A stretch of 64,000 nucleotides of DNA from an uncultured Fibrobacterota bacterium (GCA_963753345.1 CAVWBU010000028.1:8972-72971), one strand, 5' to 3'; numbered from the stretch's first letter, positions 23,453 through 60,773 are shown. The notes: a model not told the origin generated them from the sequence alone. Program-made: numbers and translations.

Positions 23453-23846
23453 GGGCGTTCCCCTCGCGGGGCTCGGGTCGGCCGTCCTTACGGTCTCGGC
23501 CTTCGGCCTCGGGCTGCCTGCCACAAGGGCCTGCGGGCCGTGGTCAGGCAGCACCGCGCTCCAGCGCGGCCTCCAGTCCTGCCTAACGCGCGGCAGAAGA
23601 GATATATTCAGTCAAGTGGATTCTCTTACGCCAGACTGAATTCTCAAGGAGAAAACAACGGCTTCTCTTTGAACTTCTCAACTCCTAAACTCCTCAACTT
23701 TTCAACACTTTTTCTTTTCAACTGCTCTCCTTGGGTGCCCCCACACAGGTGCTTGACTCTTGCAACTGTCTCCACAAGGGGTGCACCCTGGAGGGGGTAG
23801 CGGAGGACCGCTGAAGGCGGGCCGGTGCGAGGGGGGGCCTTCCCCC
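23453..23846 (+). repeat. Composite structured repeat: module B (23453-23589) + spacer + module A (23733-23846)
   Basis: GGGCGTT...CCTAACGC closing stem with internal hairpins, then GGGTGCCCCC..GGGGTGCACCC and GGGGG..CCCCC. Confidence 0.85.
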
Positions 23847-23888
23847 GCCAGACATCTGTTTGTATTTGTATTTAGTATTTGTCAACCG

Positions 23889-26800
23889 TCAACTGTCAAC
23901 TTCTTCTACCCCCCCCCCCCCCCCGTCCAGCACTCCCCTCACCGCCTGCAAAAGGTCGCGCACGGCATACGGCTTGTGCAAAAAACGGAAGTTGTTCTCC
24001 TTGATAAAATCCCAATGCGCCTTTTCGTCAGTGTAGCCGCTCGTGATGAGCACCTTGAATTTCCCGCGTTTGAGCAGATCCTGCACCATCAGGATGCCGG
24101 ACCTGTCGGGGAGAACGACATCGCTGAACACCAGGTCGAACTTGCCGTTTTCCCTTTCGAACAGCTCCATCGCCTCTTTCGCGTTCGAAACCGCAAACAC
24201 GGAATATCCGTTTGTCAATAGCAATTCCTTCGCGATCGCGCGCACCTCGGCCTGGTCCTCAACGATCATGACCCGCTCGCCTTTTCCTTCCAGGGAAGCA
24301 GCGCCGGCCTTCTCTTTGCTTTGCTGTTCGGGACTCGCTGACGAAGCCGGAAAATAGGCGCTGAACGTGGTCCCGTGCCCGGGTTCGCTGTAAACGTCTA
24401 TCCAGCCCTTGTGCTGCTGGACAATGCCGAACACCACCGACAATCCGAGCCCTGTTCCCTTGCCTGCCGGCTTGGTGGTGAAAAACGGCTCGAAAATGTG
24501 CTGCTGCGTCAGTTCATCCATGCCGGTGCCGGTGTCCGACACCGAGATGCGGACAAAGCGTCCGGGGCGGGCCGTCTTGCTCGTTCGGCAATACTCTTCG
24601 TCAATGGTCACGTTCTCGGTCTTCATGAATATTTTTCCGCCTTCCGGCATTGCGTCCCTTGCGTTCACCGCCAGGTTCATAAGCATCTGCTCGATGTTCC
24701 CCTCGTCGCCGAGAATGGTCCAGACGCCCTTTTCCAGGCCGGTCTCAATCACAATGTCCTCACCGATAAGCCTGTCGAGCATTTTGAGCAGGCGGGTGAT
24801 GGCGGCGTTGACGTCCATGGGCATCGGCTCCATGTGCTGTTTCCTGCTGAAAAGAAGGAGCTGGCGCACCACGCCCGCTGCCTTGTCCGCCGCAACGCTC
24901 ACCTGTCTCAGATCCCTTTGCACCGGATCGGATTCGTCTATTTTCCCAATGGCAAGGGTCGTGTAGCCGGAAATGGCGCAGAGAAGATTGTTAAAGTCGT
25001 GCGCTACGCCGCCGGCCAATGTGCCCATGGCCTCCATTTTCTGGGCCTGGAGAAGCTGGATCTGTAGGTTTTCCCTTTCCTTTTCATGCTGTTTGCGCTC
25101 GGACACGTCGCGGAAAATCCCCAGCATATAGTCGCGGCCGTTCATTTGTACCCGTGCGGCCCTGATTTCCACCGGCGTCAATGCGCCGGATTTGGAAATG
25201 ATCTGGTCGTCGACCGTGATACCCGGATCGTCTGTCTTATGCTTAACAAAGGCCGCCGATTGACCGTTGAGAAGATTTTGGGCCGGATGAATAACCGACT
25301 GCATCTGCCCCACCAGTTCCGTTTTGTCCATGCCGACCATGCGGCACAATGCCTGGTTGCATTCCACTATTTTTCCCGTTTCGGAATCGGCAAGCGCAAT
25401 GCCGTCCTTGGCGTCGTCGAAGAGCGTGCGGTAACGCTCTTCGCTTTCTTGCAATGCCTTCTCCGATTGCTTGCGTTCGGTGATGTCATGTACATTTTCT
25501 ACAACCATGGTGACATTGTTATTATTGTCAAATATTGGATAAGCGCTTACTTCCTTGAACAGCTTGGTATATTCGTTGTAATATTCGACAACAACAGGTT
25601 TCCCCGAGTTAAAGACACCAAAGGGCTCGCATGGTTCACAGGGCGAGTCTCGATGAATGAATGCCTCAAAGCAATGAGAACCTATGGGGAATTCGGTACA
25701 GCCGGCATAGAGAGGAGATTTCCAATTGGACTTTAGAATTCTTAGATTTCTGTCAACGACAGCAATGAGATCCTCAGAGGAGCTAAATACACTCTCGAGT
25801 AACTTGTTAGTATTCTGCAGTTCCTCCTCGCTCTTTTTGCGTTCGGTGATGTCGCGCTCGAGCGAAACTGCAAAAGTCTTTGAACCGACTTGCATTTCCG
25901 TGGCCGAGCACTCGAAATCCCGGACCGTACCGTCCTTGCATCGGTGTTTTGTCTCGAATACTTTCCCTAGTCGTGAAAGGATATTTTGCCGCATCTCATT
26001 GATCGTTTGGGAACCATCGAACGCCACATTTATGAAAGAAACCGGCTGGCCTATCAGCTCGTCTCGCGCGTATCCGAGGAGCCTCAAGGCCGCGTTGTTC
26101 GCATCCCGGATCACGGGCATGCCTTTCGGCGCAATCTCCAGTTGAAGTATGATGTCCGCTGCCTGCTCGAAGAGGATTCGATACCTCGCCTCGCTCTGGC
26201 GCAATGCCTTTTCCGCGAGTTTGCGTTGTGACAACCATTCGGTGATATCGCGGATGTTGCACTGGATCACTTTCTTTCGGCCCACAACATAGACATTGCT
26301 CACGAACTCCACGTCGATGCGCCGCCCGTCGGCGGTTTCCAGGGGCAGATCTACGTAACGGATGTATTCCTTTCGCTGCAATTCCAGGAAATTTTCTTTG
26401 TTGGCAATTATGTCCTTGAAGAGCCCCAGGTCCCATATTGTTTTTCCCATGAACTGTTCATGTGAATAACCCAGCAGTTTAATGAGAAATGGATTTACGT
26501 CTACAACCATCCCCGTCTCGGAATCAAGGATCAGAATTCCATCTTTCGCCGATTCGAAGAGCCGACGGTACCGGGCTTCCGAAATGCTTAAAGCCTCAGT
26601 CGTCAGTTTGCGCTGGATTTCCGCCTCGGCAAGCTTTTTCCTGTTCTCTATTTCCTCGCACGCGTGCTTCACCTTGACGGGCAATATTTCGTGAAACTGA
26701 ATGGACTTGGCGACATATTCCACGGCCCCGAGCTTCATCATCTCAACGGCGATCATCTCGTCGCCGTGACCCGTGATGATCATAAACGGGATTTCGAGGC

Positions 26801-27041
26801 CGCGGCCGCGCACCTTCTCCACGAACTCCCTTGCCGTCATGTCGGGCAGGGAATAATCGAGCAGCAGCAGCACATTGTCGGTATTTGACAATGCCGACAC
26901 ACGTTCCAGCGCTGTGGCGCCCGTAAAGAACCCCTCGGATTTCATTCCTGCCCCGTCAAGCAATCTGCGGATTGACTTGTTGAGCAGCTCGTCGTCTTCG
27001 ACGACAAGAATGGTGGTGGCGGATTTTGTGTTTTTGTTCAT
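23889..27041 (-). CDS. Hybrid sensor histidine kinase (REC-PASx4-HisKA-HATPase-REC)
   Basis: N-terminal REC ([12 protein letters not shown]), repeated PAS/PAC (RDITERK), H-box [25 protein letters not shown]-terminal REC. Confidence 0.95.
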
Positions 27042-27054
27042 GGGTCGGCCTTTG

Positions 27055-27513
27055 TTAATGCGTTCCGTTTTTGTTCCCGTTTATCGTCGGCACTTCCACC
27101 ACCAGAAGGAACAGCCCCAGCTTGCGCACCGCATCAATGAACTTGTCGTATTCGATGGGCTTGGTGACGTAATTGCTGCACCCGAGTTCATGGCACTTGT
27201 CAACCTCTCGCGGATCGTCGGTGGTGGTGATCATTATCACCGGCAGCTTTTTGAGCTCTTTATCATCCTTTACCCGGCGCAGCACCTCGATGCCGTCAAC
27301 CTTGGGCATGCGTATGTCGAGCAGCAGAAGGTAGCCGGTGTCGCGCTTCCGATGCGGCCCCTTGCCATTTTCAAACAGGAAATCCAGGGTTTCCTGGCCG
27401 TCCTTGAACCGGATAATTTCGTTGAGCAGGCCCGCGCGCCGCAGGTTGCGGTCTATGAGCGTGGCGTGGCCGTCGTCGTCTTCCGCGATAAGGATGATGA
27501 CTTCTTTTTTCAT
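27055..27513 (-). CDS. Single-domain response regulator (Rcp1-like)
   Basis: AEDD, LLDIRMPKVDG, PVIMITT, YVTKP. Confidence 0.95.
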   Translation of the reverse strand: MKKEVIILIAEDDDGHATLIDRNLRRAGLLNEIIRFKDGQETLDFLFENGKGPHRKRDTGYLLLLDIRMPKVDGIEVLRRVKDDKELKKLPVIMITTTDDPREVDKCHELGCSNYVTKPIEYDKFIDAVRKLGLFLLVVEVPTINGNKNGTH

Positions 27514-27569
27514 GGGAATCCTTTCGGAAATTGATTAAGAATGCCTGTTTGTTTTCTTTTTATCTTCTA

Positions 27570-27700
27570 ACCTCACCCCGGCCTTCGGCCACCCCTCTCC
27601 CACAGGGAGAGGGGAATTCATGCTTGTTTTTCTTTCGCCCCTCTCCCCGGGGGCGACCCTTGGAAGTGCCCGAAGGGGCAAGAGGGGCCGGGGGTGAGGT
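27570..27700. repeat. CCTCACCCC..CCCTCTCCC/GGGAGAGGG-class palindromic repeat with a nested 27-bp mini-element
   Basis: ACCTCACCCCGGCC ... GGCCGGGGGTGAGGT outer arms and two CCCTCTCCC hairpins; CGACCCTTGGAAGTGCCCGAAGGGGCA sits inside the second. Confidence 0.75.
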
Positions 27701-30700
27701 TACCTTCCCGGCAGCTCCACATAAAACCTGCTTCCCTTGCCCGGTTCCGATTCCAGCCGCACGTTGCCGCTGAGCCTTGCGACAATTTTCTTGACAATTG
27801 CAAGCCCCAGCCCTTCGCCTTCGCACGCCTTCGGGTCGAGCCGGTGAAATATTTCGAAGACCTTTGACTGATGCTCAGGCGAAATGCCAACGCCGTTGTC
27901 TTCGATGCAGTATTCGGAAATGCCTCTTTGGGTTTTGCCCGAAATCCGGACAACGGCCGGACGGTCCGGCGCCGCATATTTGAGCGCATTGTCAATGAGG
28001 TTTGTAAAGACCTGGTTCAATTGGTCGGGATCGCCGATGCACGGCGGCAGCGGTTCCGTCTCCACCGTGGCTTTGTTTTGTTGAATTTGGAACTCCATAG
28101 CTTTCAGGACGTGCGACAGCAGGCTGTTCATGTCGAGCTTCTGAAAATTGACCGCGACCCGGCCGAGCCGGGAAAGCTTGAGCAGGCCCTTGAGAAGAGA
28201 GTCCATTTTGACAACGCTCGCCAGAACGTAATTCTGGTCCTGGGGAAACTCCCGGATCATGATCTCGTCGAGTCTTGCGCGCTGCTTGGCGGGAAAATCG
28301 GCATGCGACGTAATCTCCGCAACTTCGTCGGCAAGAAGCCCCATTTCCCTGCTGAAGCCCTGCACGTTCACCAGCGGCGACCGCAGGTCGTGCGAGGCGA
28401 TATAGACAAGCTGCTCGAGTTCGGTGTTTTTCTGGAGAAGTTCGTTGTTCAGAAGGTTTATCTGTTCTTCGGCCAGTTTGCGCTCGGTGATGTCCTCAAT
28501 AGTGTCGTCGAAAAATATCCCGCCGTCTGCGTCGATTTTTTTTACTGCATGTATGCGGCACCAGATCAGCTTTCCCTTGAGGGTTTTGAACTTGACTTCA
28601 TCATCAACAAAACCCTTTGCCACAATGGCATCGCTTACGATCTTGCGCTGGCTTTCGTCCCAATAGATTTCGCTCGGATGAAGAGCCATCAACTGTTCAC
28701 GGCTGTCGGCTTCGAACATTTTAACCATGGCCGGATTCACATCGATAAAAGCCCCTTGGGGGCCCGGCGTGGTTCGAAGAAGACCAATGGCGACGTTGTC
28801 ATAAAGCTCCCGGTAAAGCCGCTGCGCTTCAGCCAGCTCCTTCTCGCTTTTTTTGCGCTCGGTGATGTCCTGGATTATGGCAAGGAAGTACATCAAGCTG
28901 CCCTGGCTGTTCCTCACGACGTTGATGCAGACATCGCCCCAGACAACCTTGCCATCCTTGCGCACATATCTTTTCTGCACCATGGAGCTCTTCTTCTCAC
29001 CCGTTGCAATGGCCCGCATGTCGGCCATGCCTATGTCAACGTCCTCCGGAAAGGTGACGTCGGCGATGGTCTTCTGCTTGATCTCATCCTCGCCAAAGCC
29101 CAGAAAATCGCAGAACGCCCTGTTGCAACCAAGGAACCGTTTGTCCATACCGACCGTGGCGATGCTCACGGGCGCCTGATCGATGGTGAGCTGCAGTTTC
29201 TCCCTGCTCTCCTCAAGCTTCTCCTGCGTCTGCTTGCGCTCGGTGATGTCGCCCACAATGTGAACATATCCCGAAACGCGGCCGTTGCCGTCAAGGATGG
29301 GATCGACATACACCGCAAACCAGCGGTCGCCCATTTCCAGTTCCATGGACTCCCGGTGAAGGCTGTTTCTCGCGCGCAGCACCGGACACTCGGGAATCGC
29401 GTCGGCCGTACCGTGCACTATTTCCCAGCAATGCTTGCCAATCATTTTTTCGCGGGAAAGATTGAATATCTTCTCGGCCATTTTGTTGGAGCGGACTATC
29501 TTCTGGTCTTTGTCAAGGAGCCAGATCGCGTCCAGGTCGGCATCAAAGGTCTTCTGCCATTCATTGCCCACACGTGCCAGCGATTCTTCCATTTCCTTCT
29601 GCTGGGTGATGTCGATAACGGAGGTAATGAAGTAGAGCGCGTTGCCCTTTTCGTCCCTCTGCAGCGCCGTGCCAACATCGGTCCAGACAACGTCGCCGTT
29701 TTTCTTTATGTATCTCTTTGTGAACCGGGCCGCCTTTATACGGCCTGACAATACCTCGTCGATATTCTTCTGCGTCAATTCGGCATCGTCCGGATGGGTT
29801 ATCTGCTGCCATTTTTTGTTTGCAAGTTCCTCCTTGGTGTATCCCAGCATGTCGCAGAACGCAGCGTTGACATTCACATGGCCGTCGGGCAGGGTGATGG
29901 ATTTTCCAACATTCGAGTTGTCGAACACGTTGCGGAATTTCTCCTCGCTTTCCTTCAACCCCGTTTCGGCCAGATATTGTTTTCTGAAGATTCTCCGCTC
30001 GCGCATCATCCACCACATCACCAGCAGGGACCCGGCGGCAATAATAACAAGACCCGCTCCAATCATTATGGCCCTCGCGGCGGCCCGGAGCGGTGCAAGC
30101 ACTTCCTCTTTGTCCACCTTCGCAATAATATACCACGGCGAGTCGGGAATGCGCCTGCCGACCGCAAATACCTTTGCGCCGTGGTAATCCGTGCCTTCCA
30201 TCAGCCCTTCCCTGCCGCGGGCGAACTGCGCCGCAGGAAGGTCCTCGGTTCCAACAGGAAACCGGAGATTCAAGGCAGCGCCTTGCCGGAACTTCAGATC
30301 GTTCAGAAACACGATTTTGTTGCCGTCCTGCCTGAACAGAAGGGTCTCCGAAGTTTTGCTCGGAACGGGCCAGGTGCTGATAAGCGGGTATAAAAATTGT
30401 TCCGGCGCGCACCGCAGGACCACGACCCCGGCAACGGCGGCCGCGGTATCGGGCCCGAGCAGGGGCGCAAGCAGGTCGAGCCGAGTGCGGCTGCAGCCAG
30501 GGCACCGGTAAAAATCCACAAACCTCATTTTTCTTTCGGCAACCACCTGTTTGATGGCGCCCGTGTCGAGATACAGCGGCAAGTTCGCCGTGTCGCCCAT
30601 TTTGTCAATCATCCGGCCTTCAGGGTCGGTAACGATCAGCGATTGATACGCGTATTCCTTTTTGCCGGTGGTGAGTATGGGGCCGATCCTGCGCAGGCAG

Positions 30701-30972
30701 TTGCGGAGCGTTTCTTTTCCGCCGCTGCCATTAAAAAGCAGGCCGCCCCGGGAAAGCACCTCGGCGTCGCCGAGCCGTTCCCGCCTCCAGGCGGCAATCT
30801 GTTCCATCTTGAGGTTTGCAATGGCGGAAAGCTCATCCTTGACTTTTGCTACAAAGCGCATTTCCTCAAACTGGTAATACTGCCAGGCCCCAATGACAAT
30901 TGCCGCCAGCAGCACGGCAAATAGGCCTGCCGCAAGATATGGAAACCGGGGATTGATCCGTTTCTTTTCCAT
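27700..30972 (-). CDS. Membrane sensor histidine kinase (periplasmic Cache-like, PASx4, HisKA, HATPase)
   Basis: Two TM helices, four PAS/PAC repeats, H-box ASHDLRSP, NLIDNALKY, GEGLGLA. Confidence 0.95.
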   Translation of the reverse strand: MEKKRINPRFPYLAAGLFAVLLAAIVIGAWQYYQFEEMRFVAKVKDELSAIANLKMEQIAAWRRERLGDAEVLSRGGLLFNGSGGKETLRNCLRRIGPILTTGKKEYAYQSLIVTDPEGRMIDKMGDTANLPLYLDTGAIKQVVAERKMRFVDFYRCPGCSRTRLDLLAPLLGPDTAAAVAGVVVLRCAPEQFLYPLISTWPVPSKTSETLLFRQDGNKIVFLNDLKFRQGAALNLRFPVGTEDLPAAQFARGREGLMEGTDYHGAKVFAVGRRIPDSPWYIIAKVDKEEVLAPLRAAARAIMIGAGLVIIAAGSLLVMWWMMRERRIFRKQYLAETGLKESEEKFRNVFDNSNVGKSITLPDGHVNVNAAFCDMLGYTKEELANKKWQQITHPDDAELTQKNIDEVLSGRIKAARFTKRYIKKNGDVVWTDVGTALQRDEKGNALYFITSVIDITQQKEMEESLARVGNEWQKTFDADLDAIWLLDKDQKIVRSNKMAEKIFNLSREKMIGKHCWEIVHGTADAIPECPVLRARNSLHRESMELEMGDRWFAVYVDPILDGNGRVSGYVHIVGDITERKQTQEKLEESREKLQLTIDQAPVSIATVGMDKRFLGCNRAFCDFLGFGEDEIKQKTIADVTFPEDVDIGMADMRAIATGEKKSSMVQKRYVRKDGKVVWGDVCINVVRNSQGSLMYFLAIIQDITERKKSEKELAEAQRLYRELYDNVAIGLLRTTPGPQGAFIDVNPAMVKMFEADSREQLMALHPSEIYWDESQRKIVSDAIVAKGFVDDEVKFKTLKGKLIWCRIHAVKKIDADGGIFFDDTIEDITERKLAEEQINLLNNELLQKNTELEQLVYIASHDLRSPLVNVQGFSREMGLLADEVAEITSHADFPAKQRARLDEIMIREFPQDQNYVLASVVKMDSLLKGLLKLSRLGRVAVNFQKLDMNSLLSHVLKAMEFQIQQNKATVETEPLPPCIGDPDQLNQVFTNLIDNALKYAAPDRPAVVRISGKTQRGISEYCIEDNGVGISPEHQSKVFEIFHRLDPKACEGEGLGLAIVKKIVARLSGNVRLESEPGKGSRFYVELPGR

Positions 30973-35124: not shown

Positions 35125-35170
35125 CGTTTACTTCTATTTTCCACATCCTGCATTCTTCATTCAAAAATGT

Positions 35171-35300
35171 TTCTTGGTGCCCCCACAAGGGAGTTCCATT
35201 CTTGCTGCAGACTCCTCTTGGGGGCTACCCTCGAGGGGGTAGCGGAGGACGCCGCAGGCCTGAAGGCCGAGGAGGCCGCAGCGAGGGGGAGACCTCCCCC
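35171..35300 (+). repeat. Structured repeat module A, copy 3
   Basis: GGTGCCCCCA..GGAGT..ACTCC..TGGGGGCTACC; GCAGGCCTGAAGGCCGAGGA; GGGGGAGACCTCCCCC. Confidence 0.85.
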
Positions 35301-35341
35301 ACCAGACTATCTTTTTTTTAAATCTTCTTTTATAGTATTTG

Positions 35342-44306: not shown

Positions 44307-44675
44307 GGGCGCCCCGCCGCTTCGCGGCGGCGGCCCTCCTTCCAGGCTCGGCCGTTCGGCCTCGTTGCCGGACCGCCCTATGCCTATCGGCCGGGTCGGC
44401 CGGCAATCCCGCTACGGCGGGACCATTTCAGTCCGGCCTGGCGCGCGGCAACAGAATTCTATTCAGTCAATGACTTCTTCCCGCGCCAATCGGCATTCGC
44501 AATAAACCGGTTAGGCACCTTGTTCGCATTTTCTACTTTTCTTTGTTTCAACTATTCTCCGTGGGTGCCGCCGCAGCAATGCATGGTCTTGCAGCCACTT
44601 TGCCAAGGCGGCTACCCAGGAGGGGGTGACGGAGGACCGTAGGGCCGCAGGCAGGGGGATACTTCCCCCCCCCCC
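44307..44675 (+). repeat. Composite structured repeat (module B 44307-44444 + module A 44557-44675)
   Basis: GGGCGCC...CCTGGCGC closing stem; module A has compensatory GCCGCC/GGCGGC. Confidence 0.85.
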
Positions 44676-44798: not shown

Positions 44799-45989
44799 TT
44801 AGGGAGCAGGCCTATACGTGATATCGTCGAGCGCGTAGCTGGAACCGGCAGTGTATCCGGCTGCCGATGAAACAGGGGCCACGAACATCAGGTACTCCGT
44901 GATCGCGCTGAGATCGACCGTGGGAAAACTTGAAAGCGGAAGAGTGATCTCGTTCCAGGTGCCGTCGGCAGTATAGCCCAGCGTCGAGAGGTCGACAGCC
45001 GTGCCGGCGCCGCCGGTGGACGCGATAAACGCGCCGACACTCGGCGAGGTTCCGCGGATGTAGAAATGGATGCTTCCGCCGTAGAAACCGGACATGTCGA
45101 CCGAGCCGACAGCGGCGCTTACCACAAATCCCCATGTGGACCAGCCGACTGTTCCGCAGGTGACCAGCCAGCATTTTGTATTGCCTGTGTAGGGATTGAC
45201 CGTGCTTGCCCCGTCGAGCGCCGTCGACGTAAGGTGCAGCGACGTGTCGGCATTGGCGGCAGTGTAGTCCCACACCTGCACGGTTGTGTTCGCCCAATCG
45301 ATGCTCTTGGTGACCCGCTGCGAATATATCGCGGTTTCGGCCGACTTGGGGATCGCCGTAAGCACGCAGATCTGGCCGGAAAGCGTATACGAGGCAATGA
45401 ACTTCTTGAACGTCTTGTACCCGCCCTTCGTCGCGATGAGCGTGTCCGAAACATCCGCCGTCTTTGAAAGCGGCCGGCCGTTTATGTCCGGAACCAGCCT
45501 GAGTCCCGTCCCGGTAACGCGGACGCCGCTCAGCGACATTCTGCAAACGCTCGACCACGAGCCGATTCGAACCTTGACAAAATAGACTCCTGACGGGATT
45601 TCGGCGGCCGAGGGCGCGAACGAATAGACACCCCTTGCAAGCGTCCTGTCGAGCGCGCCGAGAACCAGGCGACCGTTTATGGAATACACGTCGATCCGGA
45701 CTGCCGAAGGTGACGCAACGGAAAACCGGATCGTGCTGCCGGCAACCGAGGCGGATACTGCCGCCGCATGCTCCTGCATACTCCTGACGGCCGTGGTCTG
45801 CGAAAGCGTGAATGAGCCGTCGCTCCCCGTGGTGGTCGAAATCCCCGCATACATCAGGCTCACTGTGGCGCCGGCAACCGGGTTGGCTGCGGCGTCGATT
45901 ACGCTCCCCGTGATGCTGATGTCCTGCGCACCCGCCTGCAAAGCAAGCGCCGCGACAAACGCGCACAGAACGGATCTTTTACGAATCAT
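44799..45989 (-). CDS. Secreted protein: carboxypeptidase-regulatory-like domain, internal T9SS-like domain, C-terminal carbohydrate-binding-like domain
   Basis: RBS AGGAGG, ITGSVIDAAANPVAGATV..TTGSDGSFTL, VRIDVYSINGRLV..PSGVYFVKV, DTLIATKGGY, WNEITLPLSSF..YALDDITY. Confidence 0.75.
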   Translation of the reverse strand: MIRKRSVLCAFVAALALQAGAQDISITGSVIDAAANPVAGATVSLMYAGISTTTGSDGSFTLSQTTAVRSMQEHAAAVSASVAGSTIRFSVASPSAVRIDVYSINGRLVLGALDRTLARGVYSFAPSAAEIPSGVYFVKVRIGSWSSVCRMSLSGVRVTGTGLRLVPDINGRPLSKTADVSDTLIATKGGYKTFKKFIASYTLSGQICVLTAIPKSAETAIYSQRVTKSIDWANTTVQVWDYTAANADTSLHLTSTALDGASTVNPYTGNTKCWLVTCGTVGWSTWGFVVSAAVGSVDMSGFYGGSIHFYIRGTSPSVGAFIASTGGAGTAVDLSTLGYTADGTWNEITLPLSSFPTVDLSAITEYLMFVAPVSSAAGYTAGSSYALDDITYRPAP

Positions 45990-46192
45990 ACAAACCTCCT
46001 GCATCGTGAAATGGTTTAAAAGGTACAGTCCCAGCGTTTTTTCAAGCGACAAATATAATAGAAAATGACGTTTTTCACAATGCAAAATTTACAATACGGG
46101 AAAATTTTACGGTCGGAATCGGAGTGAAGCGCTTTAATCAATGAGTTAGGGAGGCTGAACGGGAAAACGGCCGGGAAAATCTAAAAGGGTTC

Positions 46193-51601: not shown

Positions 51602-53158
51602 AATCATACACCGGCAAACAGACCATCCGCGAACAGCTTCCCGAGATTCTTTACGACGAATCCCGCTTCACCCTGGGCATTCCGGACGCCGTGTATTTTC
51701 CGCAAACGGTTTCCGACGTGAGAGACGTCGTTCTTGACGCACACAAGTCGAAGGTCCCCATCACCGTGATCGGCGGAAAGACCGGCATCGCCGGCGGCAG
51801 CGTTCCCATTGACGGATGCGTCGTGCTCTGCATGTCGCGACATGAACAGGATCGTTCGCGTTTCATCCGACGCGGACAACGGTTATGAGCTTTGCTGCGA
51901 GCCGGGCGTCACCCTTGAGAACATCGCCGCGTTCCTCGCAGATCCCGGCGCATGGCCATCTCCTGTGGACGGCGCGGCCATTATCACCCCGGCCGGTCTC
52001 TTCTACCCTCCCGACCCCACCGAAACAACCGCCCAGCTCGGCGGCACCGTGGCCACCAACGCCTCGGGCGCGCGCTCGTTTCGGTTCGGGCCCACGCGGG
52101 CGCACGTGATTGAACTCCGGATCGTGCTTGCCAATGGCGACACGCTCCTGCTCAGGCGCGGAGCATGCGGGGAAAAGAACGGCGTCTTTACGGCCAAAAC
52201 GGAGCAGGGAAACAACGTCACCATCAGCAAATCCTCGTACCGTTCCCCTTCTGTAAAGAACGCCAGCGGATACTTTTCTTCGCCCGACATGGACCTGATA
52301 GACCTGTTTATCGGTTCCGAAGGCACGCTCGGGATCTTTACGCAATGCACCGTGCGCCTCATGCCGCAGCCGCGTTTCGCCGCCGGGCTCAGCTTTTTTC
52401 CGGACAGGAAAGCCGCGTTCGGCGCGGCGGCATTTCTCAGAAAACAGCGCCAGGTGTCGGCCATCGAGTATTTCGACCAAAGCGCCCTCGGCTTTCTCGA
52501 ATCGGCGCGGCGCGAGCTTCCGTTCGACTTGCCGGAATTTCCGGCCGGCCGCAGAAACGCGGTGTACTGGGAATATCTGGAGACCGACAACGCGCCGTTC
52601 GAGGATCAGATGGACAAATGGGAAAGCGCGCTTGCCGGTTTCGGCTCCTCGTTCGAGCACACGTGGAGCGGATTCGAGGCAAAGGAGGTCGAGCGGCTCA
52701 AGGCCATCCGGCACGCCGTTCCCGAGGCCGTCAACGCCGCCGTCGCGCGCTGCAAGCGCGACTGCCCCGGCATCCGGAAAATTTCCACCGACACCGCCCT
52801 TCCGGCGTCCGCGTTCGAGCGGGTCTTCGAAACCTGCATGGAGAGGATTGCCGCAAGTCAATTGTCACACGCCGTGTTCGGCCACCTCGGGGATTTTCAC
52901 CTCCACATGAACCTTGTTCCGCGGTCCGAAGCTGAGCTTGACAAAGCCAAACGCCTCTACGACGACCTGATGCGCATCACGGTGGAGAACGGCGGGACCG
53001 TGTCGGCCGAACACGGCATTGGAAAGCTTAAGACCAAGTATTTGCCTATGATGTATGGCGACGCGGCAATTGAAGAAATGCGGGCGGTGAAATCGGCGCT
53101 TGATCCATTATGGCTGCTCAACAGAGGTACGCTGCTGGAATATCAACAACAAGGCTAA
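51598..53158 (+). CDS. FAD-linked oxidoreductase (GlcD/D-2-hydroxyacid dehydrogenase family), +1 frameshift at ~51840
   Basis: PDAVYFP..GGKTGIAGG, YPPDPT..GGTVATNASG, GSEGTLG, GHLGDFHLH, SAEHGIGK. Confidence 0.9.
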
Positions 53159-53189
53159 TGTTCTTTTCGTTTTCTTCCTTGATTTGCTT

Positions 53190-53218
53190 TCAACTTTCAA
53201 CCTTCAACTTTCAACTCT
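53190..53218. repeat. Heptamer tandem repeat (TTCAACT)n between convergent genes
   Basis: TCAACTTTCAACCTTCAACTTTCAACTC. Confidence 0.6.
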
Positions 53219-53250
53219 TTGGATATGAGGGACACTTCCCCCACCAAGTG

Positions 53251-54267
53251 CTATTCACACTGTGATGGCGCCTTCTTGCACTTATCAATACAGGCATCAA
53301 CAATACCCAGCAAAATTGGAAAAGAAGGCCTGCCCCGGAGCGCAAACCTCAAGCGCGCAAGCGCCACGGGCACGAAGGTCCGGTACCATGCCTTGCCCTT
53401 GCGGATCGAGAGATTTCCGTACGCGCCAAGCGCCTGCATGAGGCGCTGAACCGCGCAGATCCGGAAATTGCGTAAAGGCACGTTGACAGGTGCAACAGAC
53501 CGGTAGTATTCAAAAAGCCTTTTGCTCAGCGCAACGGTCAGCCGCGCCACGTAGGGATCGTACAGCAGCGACGCCGCGTCGTAGCCCGCGGGCCCCCGGC
53601 GCGCGCCCTGAAAGTCCACGAACCGCACCGCGCCGCCGGCAAGCAGGATGTTCTCCGACTGGAAATCGCGGTGGATGCACACCTTGGGAAAGGACGCGGC
53701 TTCGGCCGCGATCCGGCCGCGCTCTTGTTCCCACGCGGAAGTGAGCATTGCGTCAAGCCCGAAATAGTCCCTCACGCAATGCTCGGCGAAGTAGTCGCTT
53801 TCCCAGAGGAACATCTCCTGGTCCATGTCACGGCCGGAAATCACCGCGCATGACCCGGGATCCACGCGCTGCCATACGGCGAGCGCGTCAAGGACCTTCG
53901 GGTAGACACGCGCAACGGAGGCGGGAGCCGCGCGGCTGCAGAACCGCTTGAGCGTTTCTTCCCCAAGGTCTTCCTCGAGAATAAGGCCGTGCCTGTCGTC
54001 GTAGGCGTACAGGTGCGGCAAAAACGGCACGAACGGCGCAAGGTCCCGCTGGATGGCGATGAACCGGTCCCAATCGCGGTCGACGCTGTCCCACACCACG
54101 AGCACGCACGAGTCCTTGGCGCCGCGCGAAGCGATGCGCACGAACCTGCGGTCCGATCCGGCCCAGCCGGCGCAGGTGACGCTGCACGTCCGGGCGTCGA
54201 ACCACGGCACGGTTTCCTTGACAAAGCCCGCCTGCGCGGGCGTCAATTCCACGGTCTTACGCTTCAA
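53251..54267 (-). CDS. amgK: Anomeric MurNAc/GlcNAc kinase (APH family)
   Basis: AGSDRRFVR, EDLG, HRDFQSENI, DFQGAR, YDAASLL, QRLMQALGAY; adjacent to a nucleotidyltransferase. Confidence 0.8.
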   Translation of the reverse strand: MKRKTVELTPAQAGFVKETVPWFDARTCSVTCAGWAGSDRRFVRIASRGAKDSCVLVVWDSVDRDWDRFIAIQRDLAPFVPFLPHLYAYDDRHGLILEEDLGEETLKRFCSRAAPASVARVYPKVLDALAVWQRVDPGSCAVISGRDMDQEMFLWESDYFAEHCVRDYFGLDAMLTSAWEQERGRIAAEAASFPKVCIHRDFQSENILLAGGAVRFVDFQGARRGPAGYDAASLLYDPYVARLTVALSKRLFEYYRSVAPVNVPLRNFRICAVQRLMQALGAYGNLSIRKGKAWYRTFVPVALARLRFALRGRPSFPILLGIVDACIDKCKKAPSQCE

Positions 54268-55207
54268 AGGGGATCACTCCGTACGGCGTGACGATCGCGC
54301 TATGCAACGACGCGTTGTCCGGAACCACTGCGCCCCGGAACACCACCACGCGCGAAAGGCTGCTTGACAAAGGGACAGCGTCGGCCTCCACCCACGAATA
54401 CGGGCCGAGGGCCGCGGCCACCTCGGGCTTCCACGAACGCGGATACGCCCTCTTCCCTGCCGGATCGACGACGATGTCCTGCGGAACGTCGAGGCCGCAT
54501 GCTCCGTCAATCACGTCGAAATGGACCTGCGCGAGCTTGGCGGGCGTCCCCAGATCGTTCCAGTAAACCGGGCATGTTTCGACGATCTTCACGCTCATGC
54601 CGGTCTTCTGCATCCGTTTCCAGACGGGCAGAATCGAAAAATCCGCCTGCCTCAACACATTGAGCATCTGCTTCTTGTAGAAAGCGATGCCGAGAAACTC
54701 GGCCTCGAGCGCGCCGTCTCCCCCGTGCTGCGCGGCTGCGGCGTCTTCGGACCGCGCGCCGATATATTCCCGGTCCCGCTTGCGATACCACACGGTCCCG
54801 CGGTCCGACGGCATGGCGACAAGTCCTGCTTCGCAATCGAGCTTCAGAAATTCCCGCCACACCGCGCCCAGATCGATTGCGGCGATGATGTCGACATTCG
54901 CCACGCAGAAAACGTCGTCGGTTCCGAGAAATCCCCTTGCAAAATGGAGCGCTCCGCCCGTTCCCCTGATGCGGCCGGTCTCATGGAAAATGACGCATCG
55001 GCCGCCCTGGGAGTCGAGAAATGTTTTGATGCGGTCGGGGTGGTGGTGCGCATTCACGGCGATGCGCTCAATGCCGTGGCGCCGGAAAAAATCAATGGAT
55101 CGGCCAAGCAGCGGCCTGCCGCACACCGGCACCAGCGCCTTGGGAATGTGTTCGGTGAGCGGCCGCAGGCGCGTGCCGAAACCGGCGGCAAGAATGAATC
55201 CGATCAC
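54257..55207 (-). CDS. murU: Sugar-phosphate nucleotidyltransferase (MurU-like)
   Basis: ILAAGFGTRLRPLT..PKAL, GTGGAL, WNDLGTP; GTGA overlap with namZ. Confidence 0.75.
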   Translation of the reverse strand: MIGFILAAGFGTRLRPLTEHIPKALVPVCGRPLLGRSIDFFRRHGIERIAVNAHHHPDRIKTFLDSQGGRCVIFHETGRIRGTGGALHFARGFLGTDDVFCVANVDIIAAIDLGAVWREFLKLDCEAGLVAMPSDRGTVWYRKRDREYIGARSEDAAAAQHGGDGALEAEFLGIAFYKKQMLNVLRQADFSILPVWKRMQKTGMSVKIVETCPVYWNDLGTPAKLAQVHFDVIDGACGLDVPQDIVVDPAGKRAYPRSWKPEVAAALGPYSWVEADAVPLSSSLSRVVVFRGAVVPDNASLHSAIVTPYGVIPFEA

Positions 55208-56403
55208 TCGCGCTCCTCGGGATACCGTGCGACTTCGCGGAATTCTGCCAGGAACTTTGAATACGACTGCCGCCAGGATTCCTTTTCGACGGAAAGGTCG
55301 CCGCCCGCCTCCAGGACCTGCCGCAGGGCCGTATTGCCGGCAAGGATGTCGAAGGGTTTGTGGACCGCATCGTATTCGTAGGGCGGCTGGGTAAACGCGA
55401 ATTTTCCGTTCGAGGCCTTGATCGTTGCCGCGATGATTGCGGCGGTTGTAAACACCGGTTCGTAGGCGCGCGCGTCGCGCACGTGCACCTGGAAACCCGT
55501 GCAGGATTCGCCGCGCCATTTCTGGAACGTCGGGATGAAATCGTGCCGCCGCAGAATACACCCGCGGATGTCAAGACGCTTCACCTCCGCGATTACGGCG
55601 TCGGCATCGGCATACGGCGCGCCCACGATCTCGAACGGCCGCGTGGTCCCTCTCCCCTCGGACAGGTTGGTGGCCTCCAATAGCACCATACCGGGATACA
55701 CGAGCGCCGTTTCAAACGAGGGCATGTTCGGGGAGGGCATCACCCAGGAAAGGCCGGTGTCCGGCCACAGGGAATCGCGCCACCAGCCGTCCATCCACAC
55801 CACGCGGCAGTCGGCGCGGGGATAGTACCGGCGTTTGAGCAGCATAGCGATCTCGCCGAGCGTCATCCTGTGACAAAGAGGAATCGGCGCGCCGCCCACA
55901 AAGGATTGGAGCCCGTCGTCGAGCACCGGCCCGTCAAGCGCAACGGCCGCAATGGGATTGGGCCGGTCGAGGATCCAAAGCGGAATTCCCGCTTCGCCGC
56001 ACGCCTCCATGCACAGCTTTACGGTCCAGACATAGGTGTACGGCCTGGCGCCCACGTCCTGCAGATCCACCACCAGGGCATCCAGACGCGACAAACTTTC
56101 CGCCGACGGCTTCCGCCGTTCGCCGTACAGGCTGTACACGGGGATGTTGAGCACGGGGTGCGTGTAACCCTGCCACTCGATCATATTGTCCTGTGTCTGC
56201 CCAAACATCCCGTGCTGCGGGCCGAACAGGGCGCAAAGCGTGCACGCCGAATTCCTGAAGACGTCGACGGCATGAACGTAGCCGGAGGTGACCGACGCCG
56301 CGTGGCACAGAAGTCCCACCCGCTTGCCCGCTAGTTCACGCGGCAATGCCGATGCTGCAATGTCAAGGCCTGAACGGGTCATGGTAACCTTTGCGGCGTT
56401 CAT
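55204..56403 (-). CDS. namZ: Exo-beta-N-acetylmuramidase (DUF1343)
   Basis: FGPQHG, YSLYG, DLQDVGARPYTY, LDRPNP, PSPNMP, NLSEGRGTTRPFE. Confidence 0.9.
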   Translation of the reverse strand: MNAAKVTMTRSGLDIAASALPRELAGKRVGLLCHAASVTSGYVHAVDVFRNSACTLCALFGPQHGMFGQTQDNMIEWQGYTHPVLNIPVYSLYGERRKPSAESLSRLDALVVDLQDVGARPYTYVWTVKLCMEACGEAGIPLWILDRPNPIAAVALDGPVLDDGLQSFVGGAPIPLCHRMTLGEIAMLLKRRYYPRADCRVVWMDGWWRDSLWPDTGLSWVMPSPNMPSFETALVYPGMVLLEATNLSEGRGTTRPFEIVGAPYADADAVIAEVKRLDIRGCILRRHDFIPTFQKWRGESCTGFQVHVRDARAYEPVFTTAAIIAATIKASNGKFAFTQPPYEYDAVHKPFDILAGNTALRQVLEAGGDLSVEKESWRQSYSKFLAEFREVARYPEERE

Positions 56404-56694
56404 GGTGCATGGTAGAAAATATACAAGAGGCGGTCGGGAACACAAAGCGGTCGGGCGAAAACCGGCTTTTTTCGGAATGCAGAGGCACGCAATATCCGTA
56501 AAAGCATGCGGTGATTTCGACACGGCGCAGGAGACGCCGGGCTTTGCTTCTGCAAAAACTTTTTATCTTTTCTCGTGGCGGAAATTAGATTAAATGAGAA
56601 AATTGTTGAGTGTCGGCAGCTTTTAAAAAAATGCCGAAAATAGTTCGTTGCGCGTTTTTTCACCATCCATTCAACCTTTTTAAAGGAGTGCAGC

Positions 56695-56934
56695 ATGAAC
56701 GTCACAGTCAAAATGGTACTCGCAGCCTTCATCGCGGCTTCGTTTGCCGTTGCAGCCCTTGCCGAAGAGCCGGCTCCCGCAACCCCGGCGCCTGCCGCGA
56801 CATCAGTAGCGCCCGCGAGCACGGAAACCGCCCCGGCAGATACCACAAAGAGCAAGAAGAAAGCCAAGAAGGCCAAGAAAGTCAAGAAAGTTAAGAAAGC
56901 TGCTGCAGCCGACAGCACAATGGCACCCAAGTAA
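56695..56934 (+). CDS. Small exported Ala/Pro-rich, Lys-rich protein
   Basis: RBS AAGGAG, signal peptide (ALA-E), APATPAPA, KKKAKKAKKVKKVKK; followed by a terminator. Confidence 0.8.
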   Translation: MNVTVKMVLAAFIAASFAVAALAEEPAPATPAPAATSVAPASTETAPADTTKSKKKAKKAKKVKKVKKAAAADSTMAPK

Positions 56935-56953
56935 TTCTTGCGGCTACAATAGT

Positions 56954-56989
56954 AACAAAGGCGGAGGACGCGAGTCCTTCGCCTTTGTT
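56954..56989. terminator. Bidirectional terminator hairpin
   Basis: AACAAAGGCGGAGGAC-gcga-GTCCTTCGCCTTTGTT between convergent genes. Confidence 0.8.
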
Positions 56990-57011
56990 GTTTCCACCTG
57001 CCGGTATCCGG

Positions 57012-57359
57012 CTACCGCCGTATGGTCTGCACCTTTGCAGATGCCATTTTCCTCGCGTGGCCTTCCAGACCCGACTCTTTAATCTGGCGGATGCAGGCGC
57101 CCCGGTCCGACCTGAACACAAGCCCGAACAGTTTCGACATGAGGTTGTTGAATTTCCCGCAGTCCATGGCATCAGCGAATTCCGTGCATTCCGCGCAGGA
57201 AAGAATGCCTTTCCCCTTGCAGCAATTCCTGATTCCGCACCACGATGCCTTGTTGTTGGCCGCGCATCCGGGGCACCGTTCCTTCAGATACGAACCGCAG
57301 GCGCCGCAATACAGGCCGCAGAACGCAACCAGGGATTTGTCGGCTGTTATTTCACGCAT
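57012..57359 (-). CDS. DUF3795-like Cys-rich protein
   Basis: AFCGLYCGAC..CPGC..CGIRNCC..SCAEC..C. Confidence 0.85.
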   Translation of the reverse strand: MREITADKSLVAFCGLYCGACGSYLKERCPGCAANNKASWCGIRNCCKGKGILSCAECTEFADAMDCGKFNNLMSKLFGLVFRSDRGACIRQIKESGLEGHARKMASAKVQTIRR

Positions 57360-57411
57360 CCATATTTCACTTCTGTCAATAATGATAAAACTGCGATGAT
57401 CCGCGTGCCCT

Positions 57412-57894
57412 TTACTCCTCCGCAGTTCCGCTTTCGTTGTTCCCAAACAAATCCTTGATGATCCGCCTCGCCTCGCCGGCACGCCGTTTCTCGACCTCTA
57501 TCTTAACCGTGCCGGTCACGGGGTTGAATCCTCCAAGAAGACCCGCTCCGAAAAGGCTCTGCAGTTCCTCGCCTTTCGCGTTATACGGAATGTGCGCTGC
57601 CTCCAATGCGCCTTTTATCAAGACAAGCTCGGGCAGGTGCGACGTCTCGTGCACGACCACCGCCTCCGCGTCGAGATATTCGGGCGTTCCCTCCCGTAAA
57701 TCATCCGGCGTCCTGTAGGCCACGAGCGGTTTCCTGCAGTCCGGGCACCTGGTGATGCCCGCGGGGTACGTCGCGCCGCACGAGGAGCAATGCAGGGGCA
57801 GGTTGTCAAATGGGACGAGCTTCACTCCGCAGTCCGGGCACACATCAATGCTTTCGCGAAATTCGGAGAGGCAGGAGGGGCAGAAGAGGGACAT
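57412..57894 (-). CDS. Double zinc-ribbon + DUF2007-like protein
   Basis: FCPSC..CPDC twice, then LIKGALEAAHIP..VKIEV. Confidence 0.8.
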   Translation of the reverse strand: MSLFCPSCLSEFRESIDVCPDCGVKLVPFDNLPLHCSSCGATYPAGITRCPDCRKPLVAYRTPDDLREGTPEYLDAEAVVVHETSHLPELVLIKGALEAAHIPYNAKGEELQSLFGAGLLGGFNPVTGTVKIEVEKRRAGEARRIIKDLFGNNESGTAEE

Positions 57895-57930
57895 AAGCTA
57901 GATCTTTTCCATCTTGTTTAGTAAAGAATT

Positions 57931-58355
57931 GGGCGTTACCCGGCTTGCGCGGGGTCGGTCTCCCTCCGGGCTCGGCCTATGGCCTCGGGCCATCTAATTG
58001 TAGAATGTAGAATTTAGATTGTAGAATTGAAATACAAACATCGGAACATTTTTTCAATCCACATTCATCAATCTAAAATCTACAATTAAGTGTCCAGGCT
58101 GCATCCCGCCTCAAGCGGGACCATTTTTCCAGTCGCCCCTAACGCTGGGCAGAAGATCCTTGCTATATCTTTTTGTTGCATTTTGCCAAGGCGGATGTAA
58201 TCTTTGTCATCTATTTTTTCGGAGCAACTGCTCTCCACGGGTGCCCCCCAACCGAAGCTTGATTCTTGCAACTACCCTCACTTGGGGTGCACCCAGGAGT
58301 GGGGAGTGCCGAGGACGGTAAAACCGGCCGAGGCCGGGGGAGATACCTCTCCCCC
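57931..58355 (+). repeat. Composite structured repeat (module B 57931-58145 with a nested 94-bp element + module A 58233-58355)
   Basis: GGGCGTT...CCTAACGC; GGGTGCCCCC..GGGGTGCACCCAGGAG; GGGGGAGA..TCTCCCCC. Confidence 0.85.
57995..58088. mobile_element. 94-bp AT-rich MITE-like element with terminal inverted repeats
   Basis: Perfect 10-bp TIR TAATTGTAGA/TCTACAATTA extended by heptamer units; occupies the central arm of module B. Confidence 0.6.
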
Positions 58356-58370
58356 AGCAACGCCTCAAGA

Positions 58371-60319
58371 TTATCGTACAACGGCCACCGTTCCAACTAT
58401 TTTCCGGTCTGCAACAACGGTACTAAATAAATACATTCCCGCGCCGACAGATCTACCTTTTTCATCCGTCAAGTCCCAGTTCTGCCCCCGGCGCAACGAA
58501 CGGACAATCCTTCCGCTTCGATCAAAAATATGTATCTGCCCGCATCCTCCAAATTCGACCGGCATTCCGCTCGAAAAAAACGAGGTGCGCACCATGCCAT
58601 GGGTTCCGCTGCCGGCAACAGCCCGCACGCCTCCCGCGCCCACAACGCCCTCATACGCGCCGATGTCGAACGCAGGCCCTTGCGGCCGCGGAACGCCGTC
58701 GAAGTCCACGCTCACCACCGCGCTCACGTCCCTTCCCGCGTTGAGGGCGGCTGAGCCGTTTGTCAAATGCATGTTCCCGGCCGCGGTGTCGGCGAACTTC
58801 GGGTCTGCATTGACCGACGTCGCATCCCAGGAAGGGAGGCCGCCCTTGCCGAACCACAGGTTGTTGCCGGCCTGCACCTTGCTCAAATCGGCGTCCGACC
58901 ATCCGGCGACATACGGCTCGCCCGTGGAACAGATGATGTTGTTGTTGAAATGCAGCGCGTAGCGGCTGTTGTCGGTAATGCACACGTTGCCGCTGGCACC
59001 CTGGCCGCTCGCGGTCTTGCCCCAGCCGCAGCCGTACACCGTGTTGTTGTAAAAGTAAATTACGGTCGAAGTGTCTTCGTGGCCCGCGTCGATCTGGACG
59101 CCGTAATGCGTTGACGCGCCGCTTTCGTTCGGGTCCGGGTCCGGCCCCAGTCCCGCCTTTACGATGATGTTGTTGTAGAACCAGTTCTCCCCCACCGTGT
59201 AGTAGCCGATGAGCATGCCGTCGCTCACCTGGTTGATGATGAAATTGTCGTGCACCCGGTGGCCGGTCATGAATGCGGTTGAGTCCTGCTCGCTGTAGAT
59301 GTTGATGGCACGTATGGCGTTGTTGTCGTGGAAATAGTTGAAAGCGATCTCGCGGTTGCGCTGCGTGGGATACCGCGCTCCCGTTCCCGAACGAGGGCTT
59401 GACACATACAACGGATGGTACAGTTTGCTGCACCCCAGCCTGCCCGCCCTGGTGATTTCGTTGCCGAGGATGTACACGCTGTCGCCGTCGGCCTCCACGG
59501 TGCCTTCGGCCGCGCTCGCCGTGGGCGCGGTTATGTAGTTGCCCACCAGCCTCGAACCGGTGCTCACCGGTATGCTTATTTCACCGGAAGTGATGTGGAA
59601 TTTAGCCACGTTCCAATGGTTCGTGTATCCATACCCGGACTCCCAGTGGCCAAAGCCATAGGTGAGTGAACTGTCGCCCACAAGCACCCGCGCGCCCGGA
59701 TACGCGATTATCGACAGGGGCTGGGCGTCGGAGCCGTGACGGTCGAGGTTGACCGCGCCGCCGTAGCTGTCCTCGGTGGTCGCGGAAACGCCGTCGCACA
59801 CGTAAACAATGCCCCCGGCCGCCATGCCGCTCACGGCCTTGGGCATGGTCTGCCACGGTTTTGCCCAGGAGCCGTCACCCGATGCGTCGCTGCCGGTCGT
59901 CTTTACAAAGTACATTGAGGCCAGCCGTACGGCAAACGCCAGCACGTTCGACGTCTCCCCGTTCACGGTGACCGTGATGCCCGCGCCGCTGTCGGGCGTC
60001 GAACCGCTCACCTGGAATTCGATCATCTGCATGACGTGGCGCGAAAACAGGTCTGCCGGCGCCGCGGCGTTTTTCCACGAATACACCCGCGCCTCAGTGC
60101 CGTTGACAAACATCTTGGATGTCGCCTGGCTTGGACCAAGGTTCTTTCCCCAGACGGTCACGATCGCGCCATCCACGCCCGCAGCCTGCCCGAGCGATAC
60201 GTCGCTGTTTCCAGTCTTCGGCCCGCTTGCGAGATCGGAGAAGCAGAGGATGGGAGCGGAGAAAGAAAGAAAGGAGATAAAAGAATGATAGGAAGGGGCT
60301 TGCATGATTGATAAAACAT
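58371..60319 (-). CDS. Secreted beta-helix protein (IPT-like, DUF1565-like, choice-of-anchor-Q-like, FlgD/T9SS-like C-terminus); probable -1 frameshift in the signal peptide (~60278)
   Basis: RBS AAGGAG before ATG 60319; GSDASGDGSWAKPWQT; FYNNT repeats; DFDGVPRPQGPAFDIGAYE; WDLTDEKGRSVGAGMY. Confidence 0.8.
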
Positions 60320-60400
60320 GAGAGGCTCCTTTCGGGATTCTGTCGAACAATGATCATGGGCGTTTCCCTCGCCTACGTCAAGAAATCTAAATAAAAATAT

Positions 60401-60773
60401 GGGCGCCCCTCCGCTTCACGGCGGCGGCCCTCCTTCCAGACTGCGGCCAAGGGCATCGTTGCTGCCTGCCACGCGGGCCCTTGGGCCGTGGTCGGCGGCA
60501 ATGCGCTCCAGCGCACCTTCCAGTCCTGCCTGGCGCGCGGCAATGGAATTCTTATTCAGTCAGATTATCTCTTTCCGCGCCAAGCGGCATCCGAATAAAT
60601 CAGTCAGAGCTTCCTGTTTGCATTTTCAACTCTTCAACTCTATATCTCGGTGCCCCCGCAACCGAAGTTTCTTCATTGCAAATCAACTTCCTTGGGGGCT
60701 ACCCCGAGGGGGCAGCGGAGGACACCGCAGGCCGAAGGCCGAGGAGAACGGAGCGAGGGGGAAACTTCCCCCC
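60401..60773 (+). repeat. Composite structured repeat (module B 60401-60536 + module A 60646-60773)
   Basis: GGGCGCC...CCTGGCGC; CTCGGTGCCCCC..GAAGTT..AACTTC..GGGGGCTACCCCGAG; GGGGGAAACTTCCCCC. Confidence 0.85.

Follow-up and report, generated by a model that had tools for sequence, protein, structure and literature searches.

The stretch of DNA analysed here, which we call the window, comprises 64,000 nucleotides (nt) from an uncultured Fibrobacterota bacterium of peat (GCA_963753345.1, CAVWBU010000028.1:8972-72971). It holds four copies of a multi-stem element, module B, each of which is followed by a copy of a second module, A, so as to form units about 375 to 420 nt long (Table 1). A reading made from the sequence alone had already placed four B copies in the window, and both the sequence and hidden Markov model (HMM) matches agree with it, all four being on the + strand. 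With 386 copies found in the host genome, B belongs to a large repeat family and is not a four-copy gene. The unit of about 370 to 430 bp that had been proposed, with an A after each B, also stands; what that reading overlooked is that the four units are part of a set of 386 copies, and that the window contains two A copies without any B.

Table 1. Positions of B and A modules and of associated features. Positions refer to the window, except in the last two rows, which refer to contigs of the host assembly (G000).
Feature	Position	Strand	Match or alignment
B copy 1 (B1), TT/AA closing helix	23453..23595	+	nhmmer 94.5 bits, model 1-144; row of the 43-copy alignment
Spacer of unit 1: S motif (ATTCAGTCAA..ACGCCA), then CAAC-type short tandem tract	23596..23725	+	
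A copy coupled to B1	23726..23849	+	nhmmer 101.7 bits
B copy 2 (B2), CC/GG closing helix	44307..44450	+	nhmmer 91.1 bits; row of the 43-copy alignment
A copy coupled to B2	44555..44672	+	nhmmer 79.6 bits
B copy 3 (B3), TT/AA, nested ~97-nt hairpin element in the central arm	57931..58151	+	nhmmer 98.8 bits
A copy coupled to B3, S motif absent from their spacer	58232..58355	+	nhmmer 89.9 bits
B copy 4 (B4), CC/GG	60401..60542	+	nhmmer 97.0 bits; row of the 43-copy alignment
A copy coupled to B4	60641..60773	+	nhmmer 89.2 bits
Solo A, long form with inserts, no B upstream	12540..12698	+	nhmmer 77.4 bits
Solo A, no B upstream	35168..35303	+	nhmmer 99.0 bits
'b', short piece (GGGCGTTTCCCTCGCCTACGTCAAG) that duplicates the 5' end of B, ~20 nt upstream of B4	60358..60382	+	
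'b'-like pieces upstream of B1 and B2	~23417-23436, ~44264-44285		
~930-bp repeat, 98-100% identity	C18:84600-85529, C32:215191-216120, C35:54412-55345, C49:51027-51957		
Strain-variant contig groups (examples)	C4/C16, C2/C26, C10/C3/C17/C37, C44/C45/C46		

The four B copies fall into two types according to the ends of their closing helix, which read GGGCGTT...CCTAACGC in B1 and B3 and GGGCGCC...CCTGGCGC in B2 and B4. Their internal hairpins exchange sequence and still pair (GCGC-tcca-GCGC against CCCGC-tacg-GCGGG, and GCTGCC..GGCAGC against TTGCCG..CGGCAA), as had been described before. Equally, the spacer ATTCAGTCA..CGCCA attributed to three of the four copies is present 3' of B1, B2 and B4, and not of B3. 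The extra length of B3 is explained by a nested hairpin element of about 97 nt at ~57994-58090, and a B with the same nested element exists in the congener G001. This nested element is a small hairpin repeat with tgtagaat...ctacaatta arms, which also occurs alone at 12357-12415, upstream of the solo A at 12540. As for the short 'b' pieces, they lie 20 to 80 nt upstream of 28 of the 377 anchored B copies of the genome, mostly as a TT-type b before a CC-type B, and a similar arrangement is seen in genome G018, from another family.

The host assembly (G000) is a metagenome-assembled genome (MAG) of 4.52 Mb in 55 contigs, with 55.9% G+C, 94.26% completeness and 4.79% contamination. It was searched with nhmmer, using HMMs built from the window copies and a threshold of E<=0.001, which gave 386 B and 285 A; these raw counts include some allelic duplicates, as the MAG holds strain-variant duplicate contigs of 91-99.9% identity. 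Matches to A and B make up 2.06% of the genome; nearly all of the copies are intergenic, and by crude gene calls they occupy 382 of 3330 intergenic gaps, or about one in nine (104 of 637 convergent, 71 of 643 divergent and 207 of 2050 tandem gaps). The sequence bordering the modules is also characteristic: the left flank of B is A-rich in a position-specific manner and ends with TT before GGGCG, and the flank past A reads ACCAAGAA followed by a T-rich stretch.

Arrangement of the modules obeys simple rules. An A lies downstream of B on the same strand for 200 of the 386 B copies, at a distance of 67-378 nt (median 121), and no other arrangement of B and A within 600 nt occurs anywhere in the genome. 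The chance-only adjacency that the earlier reading had named as the outcome counting against it is therefore not what we find. Conversely, a B is located upstream of 199 of the 285 A copies. The coupling of B to A is thus non-random yet not obligatory, and it is lineage-dependent; it cannot be called fixed, as it had been, because 186 of 386 B copies have no A and 86 of 285 A copies have no B. TT-type copies are more often coupled, with 150 of 253 joined to an A against 41 of 115 for the CC type. An S motif consensus follows most B copies on their 3' side, and the spacer between B and A usually consists of this motif and a short tandem tract, with at least three CAAC-like words in 169 of 193 spacers. 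The second commonest composite is a convergent inverted doublet of B (36 pairs, modal gap ~112 nt), and close divergent B pairs are absent from the genome-wide arrangement table; most B copies, for their part, are single or joined to an A and not in doublets. Distinct modules are therefore found in fixed order and orientation at many extragenic sites, which is the hallmark of a mosaic repeat.

To describe the fold of B we relied on a main alignment of 43 copies (3 from the window and 40 genome loci) whose mutual identity is below 90%. RNAalifold returned 29 pairs for this alignment, 18 of them compensated, and its structure was extended to nine helices and 47 pairs, among which P5 was picked by covariation. 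The element is ~140 nt long, and the resulting model has 142 positions. In these 43 copies 91.3% of cells pair in the nine-helix fold, compared to 81.4% in shuffles, and double changes affect 27 of the 47 pairs, compared to 16.6 in shuffles; none of 500 shuffles scored as high on either count. When the partners were slid as a control, 31-47% of cells were paired. The first pair of the closing helix is UA in 22 copies and CG in 21, with no mismatch, and the second is CG in 20, UA in 11 and C-A in 12; on 134 distinct copies the closing-helix tally is CG 65, TA 63 and CA 6. The multi-stem nature of B, with compensatory changes in both its closing helix and its internal hairpins, and the TT/AA to CC/GG compensation itself, which had been noticed on four copies, are thus real and beyond chance.

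The 134 distinct copies also reveal that helix alleles are reshuffled, as all four combinations are present in 29 of 36 comparisons and 59 haplotypes are found. P1 and P2 are fully linked (64/0/0/60), and the long-range pairs P1, P4 and P5 remain paired across the reshuffled interior. Because the long-range pairs stay compensated while the interior hairpins reshuffle among copies, the pattern argues for selection that keeps B pairing; inheritance from a few master copies alone would not be expected to give it. Such covariation supports a fold in single-stranded nucleic acid, RNA and DNA alike. Some copies reported by the HMM as truncated at their 5' end are actually complete, and carry a long variable P2 hairpin. 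The fold of A is simpler: of its 29 pairs, 5 are compensated, and 91.9% of cells pair. Finally, B was considered as a coding sequence and rejected as such: the three frames of the + strand are open in 92, 94 and 90 of the 134 copies, and the distribution of lengths modulo 3 is flat.

By BLASTN, B was found in four of five congeners and essentially nowhere else among 40 relatives; the congener G003, which is 99% complete, has no B and no A. A covariance model (R1) had matches in 14 of 151 sampled genomes of the phylum, the host included. Among the matching genomes are four of the five congeners and several members of four other families in the order Chitinivibrionales, with 13 scored matches in G018 (best 61.8 bits), 6 in G022 and 4 in G033, and outside the order there was one weak match. 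Genomes that bear B include the host, G001, G002, G004, G005, G018, G022 and G033; G003, G006 and G007 are relatives free of B. In 20 distant copies, 89.8% of cells pair compared to 62.4% in shuffles, and 40 of the 47 pairs are compensated, figures that are inflated toward structure since this cross-genus alignment was fitted to the model. The fold of B is conserved across the order Chitinivibrionales, and the best-conserved parts of B in the 20 distant copies are two unpaired junctions, CGGCCCTCCTT..GGCTC and CCTCCAGTCCTGCCT..CGC. A 20-nt junction motif is present at 39 loci of the species collection, 31 of which belong to two Chitinivibrionales/Fibrobacterota MAGs. Occurrences of this motif in other phyla were set aside as chance matches, as seven of seven tested singleton loci fail the B model at E<=1. 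The proportion of the two modules varies among the relatives: a 400-kb stretch of the congener G004 contains 15 B and 1 A, and a first look at A candidates gave 328 in the host, 225 in G001 and 49-62 in three other congeners.

Comparison with known RNA families gave no relative of B. No match to Rfam 15 was obtained for the window at gathering score; one full unit (23380-23920) gave three unrelated matches of 12-14 bits at E<=10, and 20 B or B-like copies gave five unrelated sub-threshold matches at E<=1, each in a different source. Flavo-1, which the ends of the element had been said to resemble, is absent from the matches at all three levels, and this likeness is dropped. Flavo-1 does share with B that it is structured, recurs in many places and belongs to the FCB group of phyla; the difference is that B has no Rfam match to it even at relaxed E-values. 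Among the 15 titles listed of 58 papers with Chitinivibrio-type names, none was on repeats, and a search for structured interspersed repeats gave nothing relevant.

The placement of the units relative to genes is biased. Between co-directional flanking genes, BA units are antisense in 75 cases and sense in 33 (p=6.6e-5), and of 193 units, 120 have their A end towards the 3' end of a gene, with a median distance of 30 nt. The orientation of the units tracks local GC skew (Fisher p=0.004) and equally gene-strand bias, two effects that are inseparable here, and solo B copies have no orientation bias by either GC skew or gene strand. On our analysis, the placement of BA fits a REP-like position in 3' untranslated regions (REP, repetitive extragenic palindrome), which would be read on the strand complementary to that chosen by the sequence-only reading. 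A terminator role was also considered: a consensus scan detected 25 terminator-like sites compared to 22.8 expected, none of them at the A hairpin. Some B variants do contain a terminator-like hairpin inside B.

Taken as a whole, B is probably part of a mosaic family of structured interspersed repeats comparable to BIMEs (bacterial interspersed mosaic elements) or BOX, with a far larger unit and an unusually complex and conserved fold. The large structured non-coding RNA proposed earlier may still be a valid description, judging from sequence, if it is understood as a repeat family of hundreds; as one gene, it does not hold. Copies of the family are assembled by simple rules: after B come the S spacer, a short tandem tract and, on the same strand, A; alternatively, two B copies face each other at ~112 nt. 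We infer that the family maintains itself by copying and by an exchange among its copies (gene conversion or recombination replacing whole spacers), and not by clean cut-and-paste insertion. A mobilising enzyme, if there is one, would be neither a Y1/RAYT transposase (RAYT, REP-associated tyrosine transposase) nor a reverse transcriptase that this assembly encodes. The B fold would most likely be read as single-stranded nucleic acid, and our leading guess is RNA in the untranslated ends of neighbouring transcripts. By analogy with REP, an A end about 30 nt behind a stop codon could serve as a 3' stabiliser or insulator.

The set of occupied gaps differs from strain to strain and from species to species. 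The B content differs at 5 places between strain-variant contigs inside the MAG, and among collinear gaps of G000 and G004, 14 are occupied (3 shared, 9 in G000 only and 2 in G004 only) and 56 more are empty in both. The B4 site is filled in G001 by a TT-type B that carries the nested hairpin and in G000 by the 'b' remnant and a CC-type B, S and A being orthologous. Among the metagenome contigs listed from four DNA runs over positions 41501-61500, none spans a BA unit; contig joints at the units have short sides that resemble other repeat copies.

A first group of observations weighs against the mosaic-repeat interpretation as far as it implies mobile copies. Mobility is deduced from occupancy differences alone, because the searches brought up no mobilising enzyme and neither target duplications nor terminal inverted repeats. 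In detail, Y1_Tnp (PF01797), the only transposase family searched for in the host, has no match in this assembly, whose completeness of 94.26% falls short of proving absence, and the reverse transcriptase domain RVT_1 has no match in G000, G003 or G005. On 166 BA units, no terminal inverted repeat was found, and inspection of the flanks by eye and by motif counts disclosed no target duplication per copy. All 16 pairs of B and A, or of two B copies, that lie 380-3000 nt apart enclose ordinary, unrelated genes, and no autonomous parent appears among them. The copies are not recent: the median identity of a copy to its nearest neighbour is 0.913 and the highest 0.986. Moreover, between filled and empty gaps, in both the strain-variant contigs and the orthologous gaps of G000 and G004, the entire spacer is replaced, and neither clean edges of insertion nor duplications can be made out. 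Turnover would then proceed by exchange between copies and not by clean insertion.

The role proposed for the family meets difficulties of its own. On the + strand, G-U outnumbers A-C 254 to 119, of which 120 G-U cells come from two fixed positions, leaving 134 to ~114. This strand check, which had been suggested beforehand, may slightly favour the + strand, a direction opposite to that of the gene-orientation bias. The occupancy of divergent gaps, where promoters lie, is similar to that of tandem gaps, and a canonical terminator belonging to gene 44799..46085 itself precedes the BA unit. A simple terminator role is weakened because of these two facts and of the G-U excess on the + strand.

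Four other explanations were weighed. The best of them, to which we give a small chance, considers the B+A units as discrete small-RNA genes of ~400 nt on the + strand, which would start at the A-rich leader, end at the terminal GGGGG..CCCCC hairpin of A and serve the cell, for instance as a sponge or scaffold for proteins. The nine-helix fold with its conserved unpaired junctions across the order, the sharp and conserved borders at both the 5' and the 3' end, where an A-rich leader that is position-specific and a T-rich trailer are found, and the modest G-U excess on the + strand all suit such genes. However, 356 leaders contain no conserved boxes of the -35/-10 type at a fixed distance, the A hairpin has no direct T run and is not called terminator-like, and some variants carry a terminator-like hairpin within B itself. 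Half of the B copies have no A, and hundreds of diverged copies, together with the absence of the family from a 99%-complete congener, do not suit an essential gene.

Quite unlikely, in our opinion, is a second explanation, by which B would belong to the REP/REPIN type and a RAYT (Y1 HUH) transposase would move it in the form of single-stranded DNA, with the convergent doublets as the mobile REPIN units. It would account for the extragenic location and high copy number of B and for the 36 convergent inverted pairs at a modal spacing of ~112 nt, and Y1_Tnp genes are common elsewhere in the order, including long forms of 320-360 amino acids. But G000 and G001 have no Y1_Tnp match and G005 only weak ones, although each of the three carries many B copies. 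The Y1 genes of G002 are six identical copies of an IS200-type gene of 144 amino acids. Furthermore, a REP is a short imperfect palindrome, a hairpin of 20-40 nt, unlike the multi-branch fold of ~140 nt described here, and the predominance of single or A-joined B copies does not favour doublets as the mobile unit.

The same low order of likelihood, or slightly below, applies to the proposal, already made by the sequence-only reading, that a non-autonomous element, or MITE (miniature inverted-repeat transposable element), has B and A as its two ends and derives from a parent with a transposase gene between them. The fixed order and orientation of B and A, their variable occupancy between strains and species, and the loose inverted pair formed by the A-rich left and T-rich right flanks speak in its favour. 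The search for B and A separated by an open reading frame (ORF) turned up only the 16 pairs around unrelated genes, which goes against such a parent, as does the lack of any target duplication seen in the 166 units. In addition, A is not an inverted copy of B, each module is often found alone, and the B:A ratio varies between congeners. Lastly, it seems very improbable that B represents a new class of RNA with self-cleaving or other catalytic activity: its complex multi-branched fold and junction nucleotides invariant across genera are what one would look for, but no ribozyme family of Rfam 15 is among the matches at gathering score, E<=10 or E<=1, so the ribozyme-like RNA suggested earlier finds no counterpart there, and the sequence data give no sign of a cleavage site.

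Several smaller repeats accompany the modules. A mini hairpin module of ~30 nt (GACGACCCTTGGAAGnnCCCGAnGGGG) recurs at 12686-12718, 19795-19827 and 27649-27681, and is also inserted within some A and B copies elsewhere in the genome. Just past the first coupled A, at 23900-23925, there is a run of ~16 C at the 3' end of ORF 23889..27041(-), and at 44676-44697 a C-run followed by (CA)n is again located just past an A copy; these runs could be slippage-prone tracts or assembly artefacts. Short tandem tracts of the TTCAAC type are found away from B and A at 38167-38210 and 53184-53227. The segment 53164-53234 (69 nt) is skipped by metagenome contigs in three of four DNA runs (X1, X2 and X6), so the tract is length-polymorphic. 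The ~930-bp repeat of Table 1, one copy of which lies directly behind a B+S, appears from its sequence to encode a putative IS5-type transposase. A 36-nt motif with a spacing of ~375 nt extends over 25074-29250, inside the large ORFs 23889..27041(-) and 27700..30972(-), and probably marks internal domain repeats of the proteins.

Bacterial interspersed repeats are usually simple hairpins. Here, a nine-helix fold of ~140 nt appears to be selected in hundreds of copies and across an order of uncultured bacteria, with no known mobilising enzyme in sight. If it acts as RNA, B would be among the most complex uncatalogued bacterial RNA motifs; if it acts as DNA, it would point to an unknown recognition or copying system. 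A bolder form of the first possibility, which we regard as unlikely, is that B is a new class of large structured RNA across Chitinivibrionales, with nine helices around invariant CCUCCUU and CCUCCAGUCC junctions. Acting as RNA, it would form the scaffold of a ribonucleoprotein, mimic the 16S anti-Shine-Dalgarno tail or have catalytic activity, and it would multiply to hundreds of loci by an undescribed route that involves neither a Y1 transposase nor a reverse transcriptase. On a practical level, the B/A family breaks metagenome assemblies and is worth masking or modelling when these genomes are annotated.

The mosaic family that we consider probable can be set beside three known systems. Correia elements of Neisseria, which are MITEs, are small non-coding intergenic repeats of 100-400 nt that are strain-polymorphic and can fold in transcripts. 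The B-A family shares these traits: it is small, non-coding and intergenic, polymorphic between strains and foldable in transcripts; it differs in that no terminal inverted repeats, target duplication or related insertion sequence were found for it. BOX elements of Streptococcus pneumoniae are made of boxA, boxB and boxC modules of 45-59 nt in about a hundred copies, and we know of no transposase that moves them. The likeness, with respect to these features, lies in modules of fixed order that are predicted to fold, an intergenic location and the lack of a known transposase, whereas the phylum and the sequences are different and the main module here has, on its own, nine helices conserved across an order.

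Another parallel is offered by the BIMEs and REPs of E. coli and the REPINs of Pseudomonas, hundreds of extragenic self-complementary units that form oriented mosaics with linkers and inverted doublets, lie near gene 3' ends and vary in occupancy between strains. Compared with these features, the B-A family is alike in extragenic copy number, self-complementarity, oriented mosaics, inverted doublets, 3'-end position and variable occupancy. It departs from them by the size of B, whose ~140 nt, nine helices and conserved junctions contrast with the single short hairpin of REP, by a host genome with no Y1/RAYT match, and by an unrelated second module, A, that is joined through a spacer and a tandem tract. 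The B-A family falls outside REP/RAYT, MITEs and all Rfam families, and is best filed among the bacterial mosaic interspersed repeats, as one that works like BIME or BOX.

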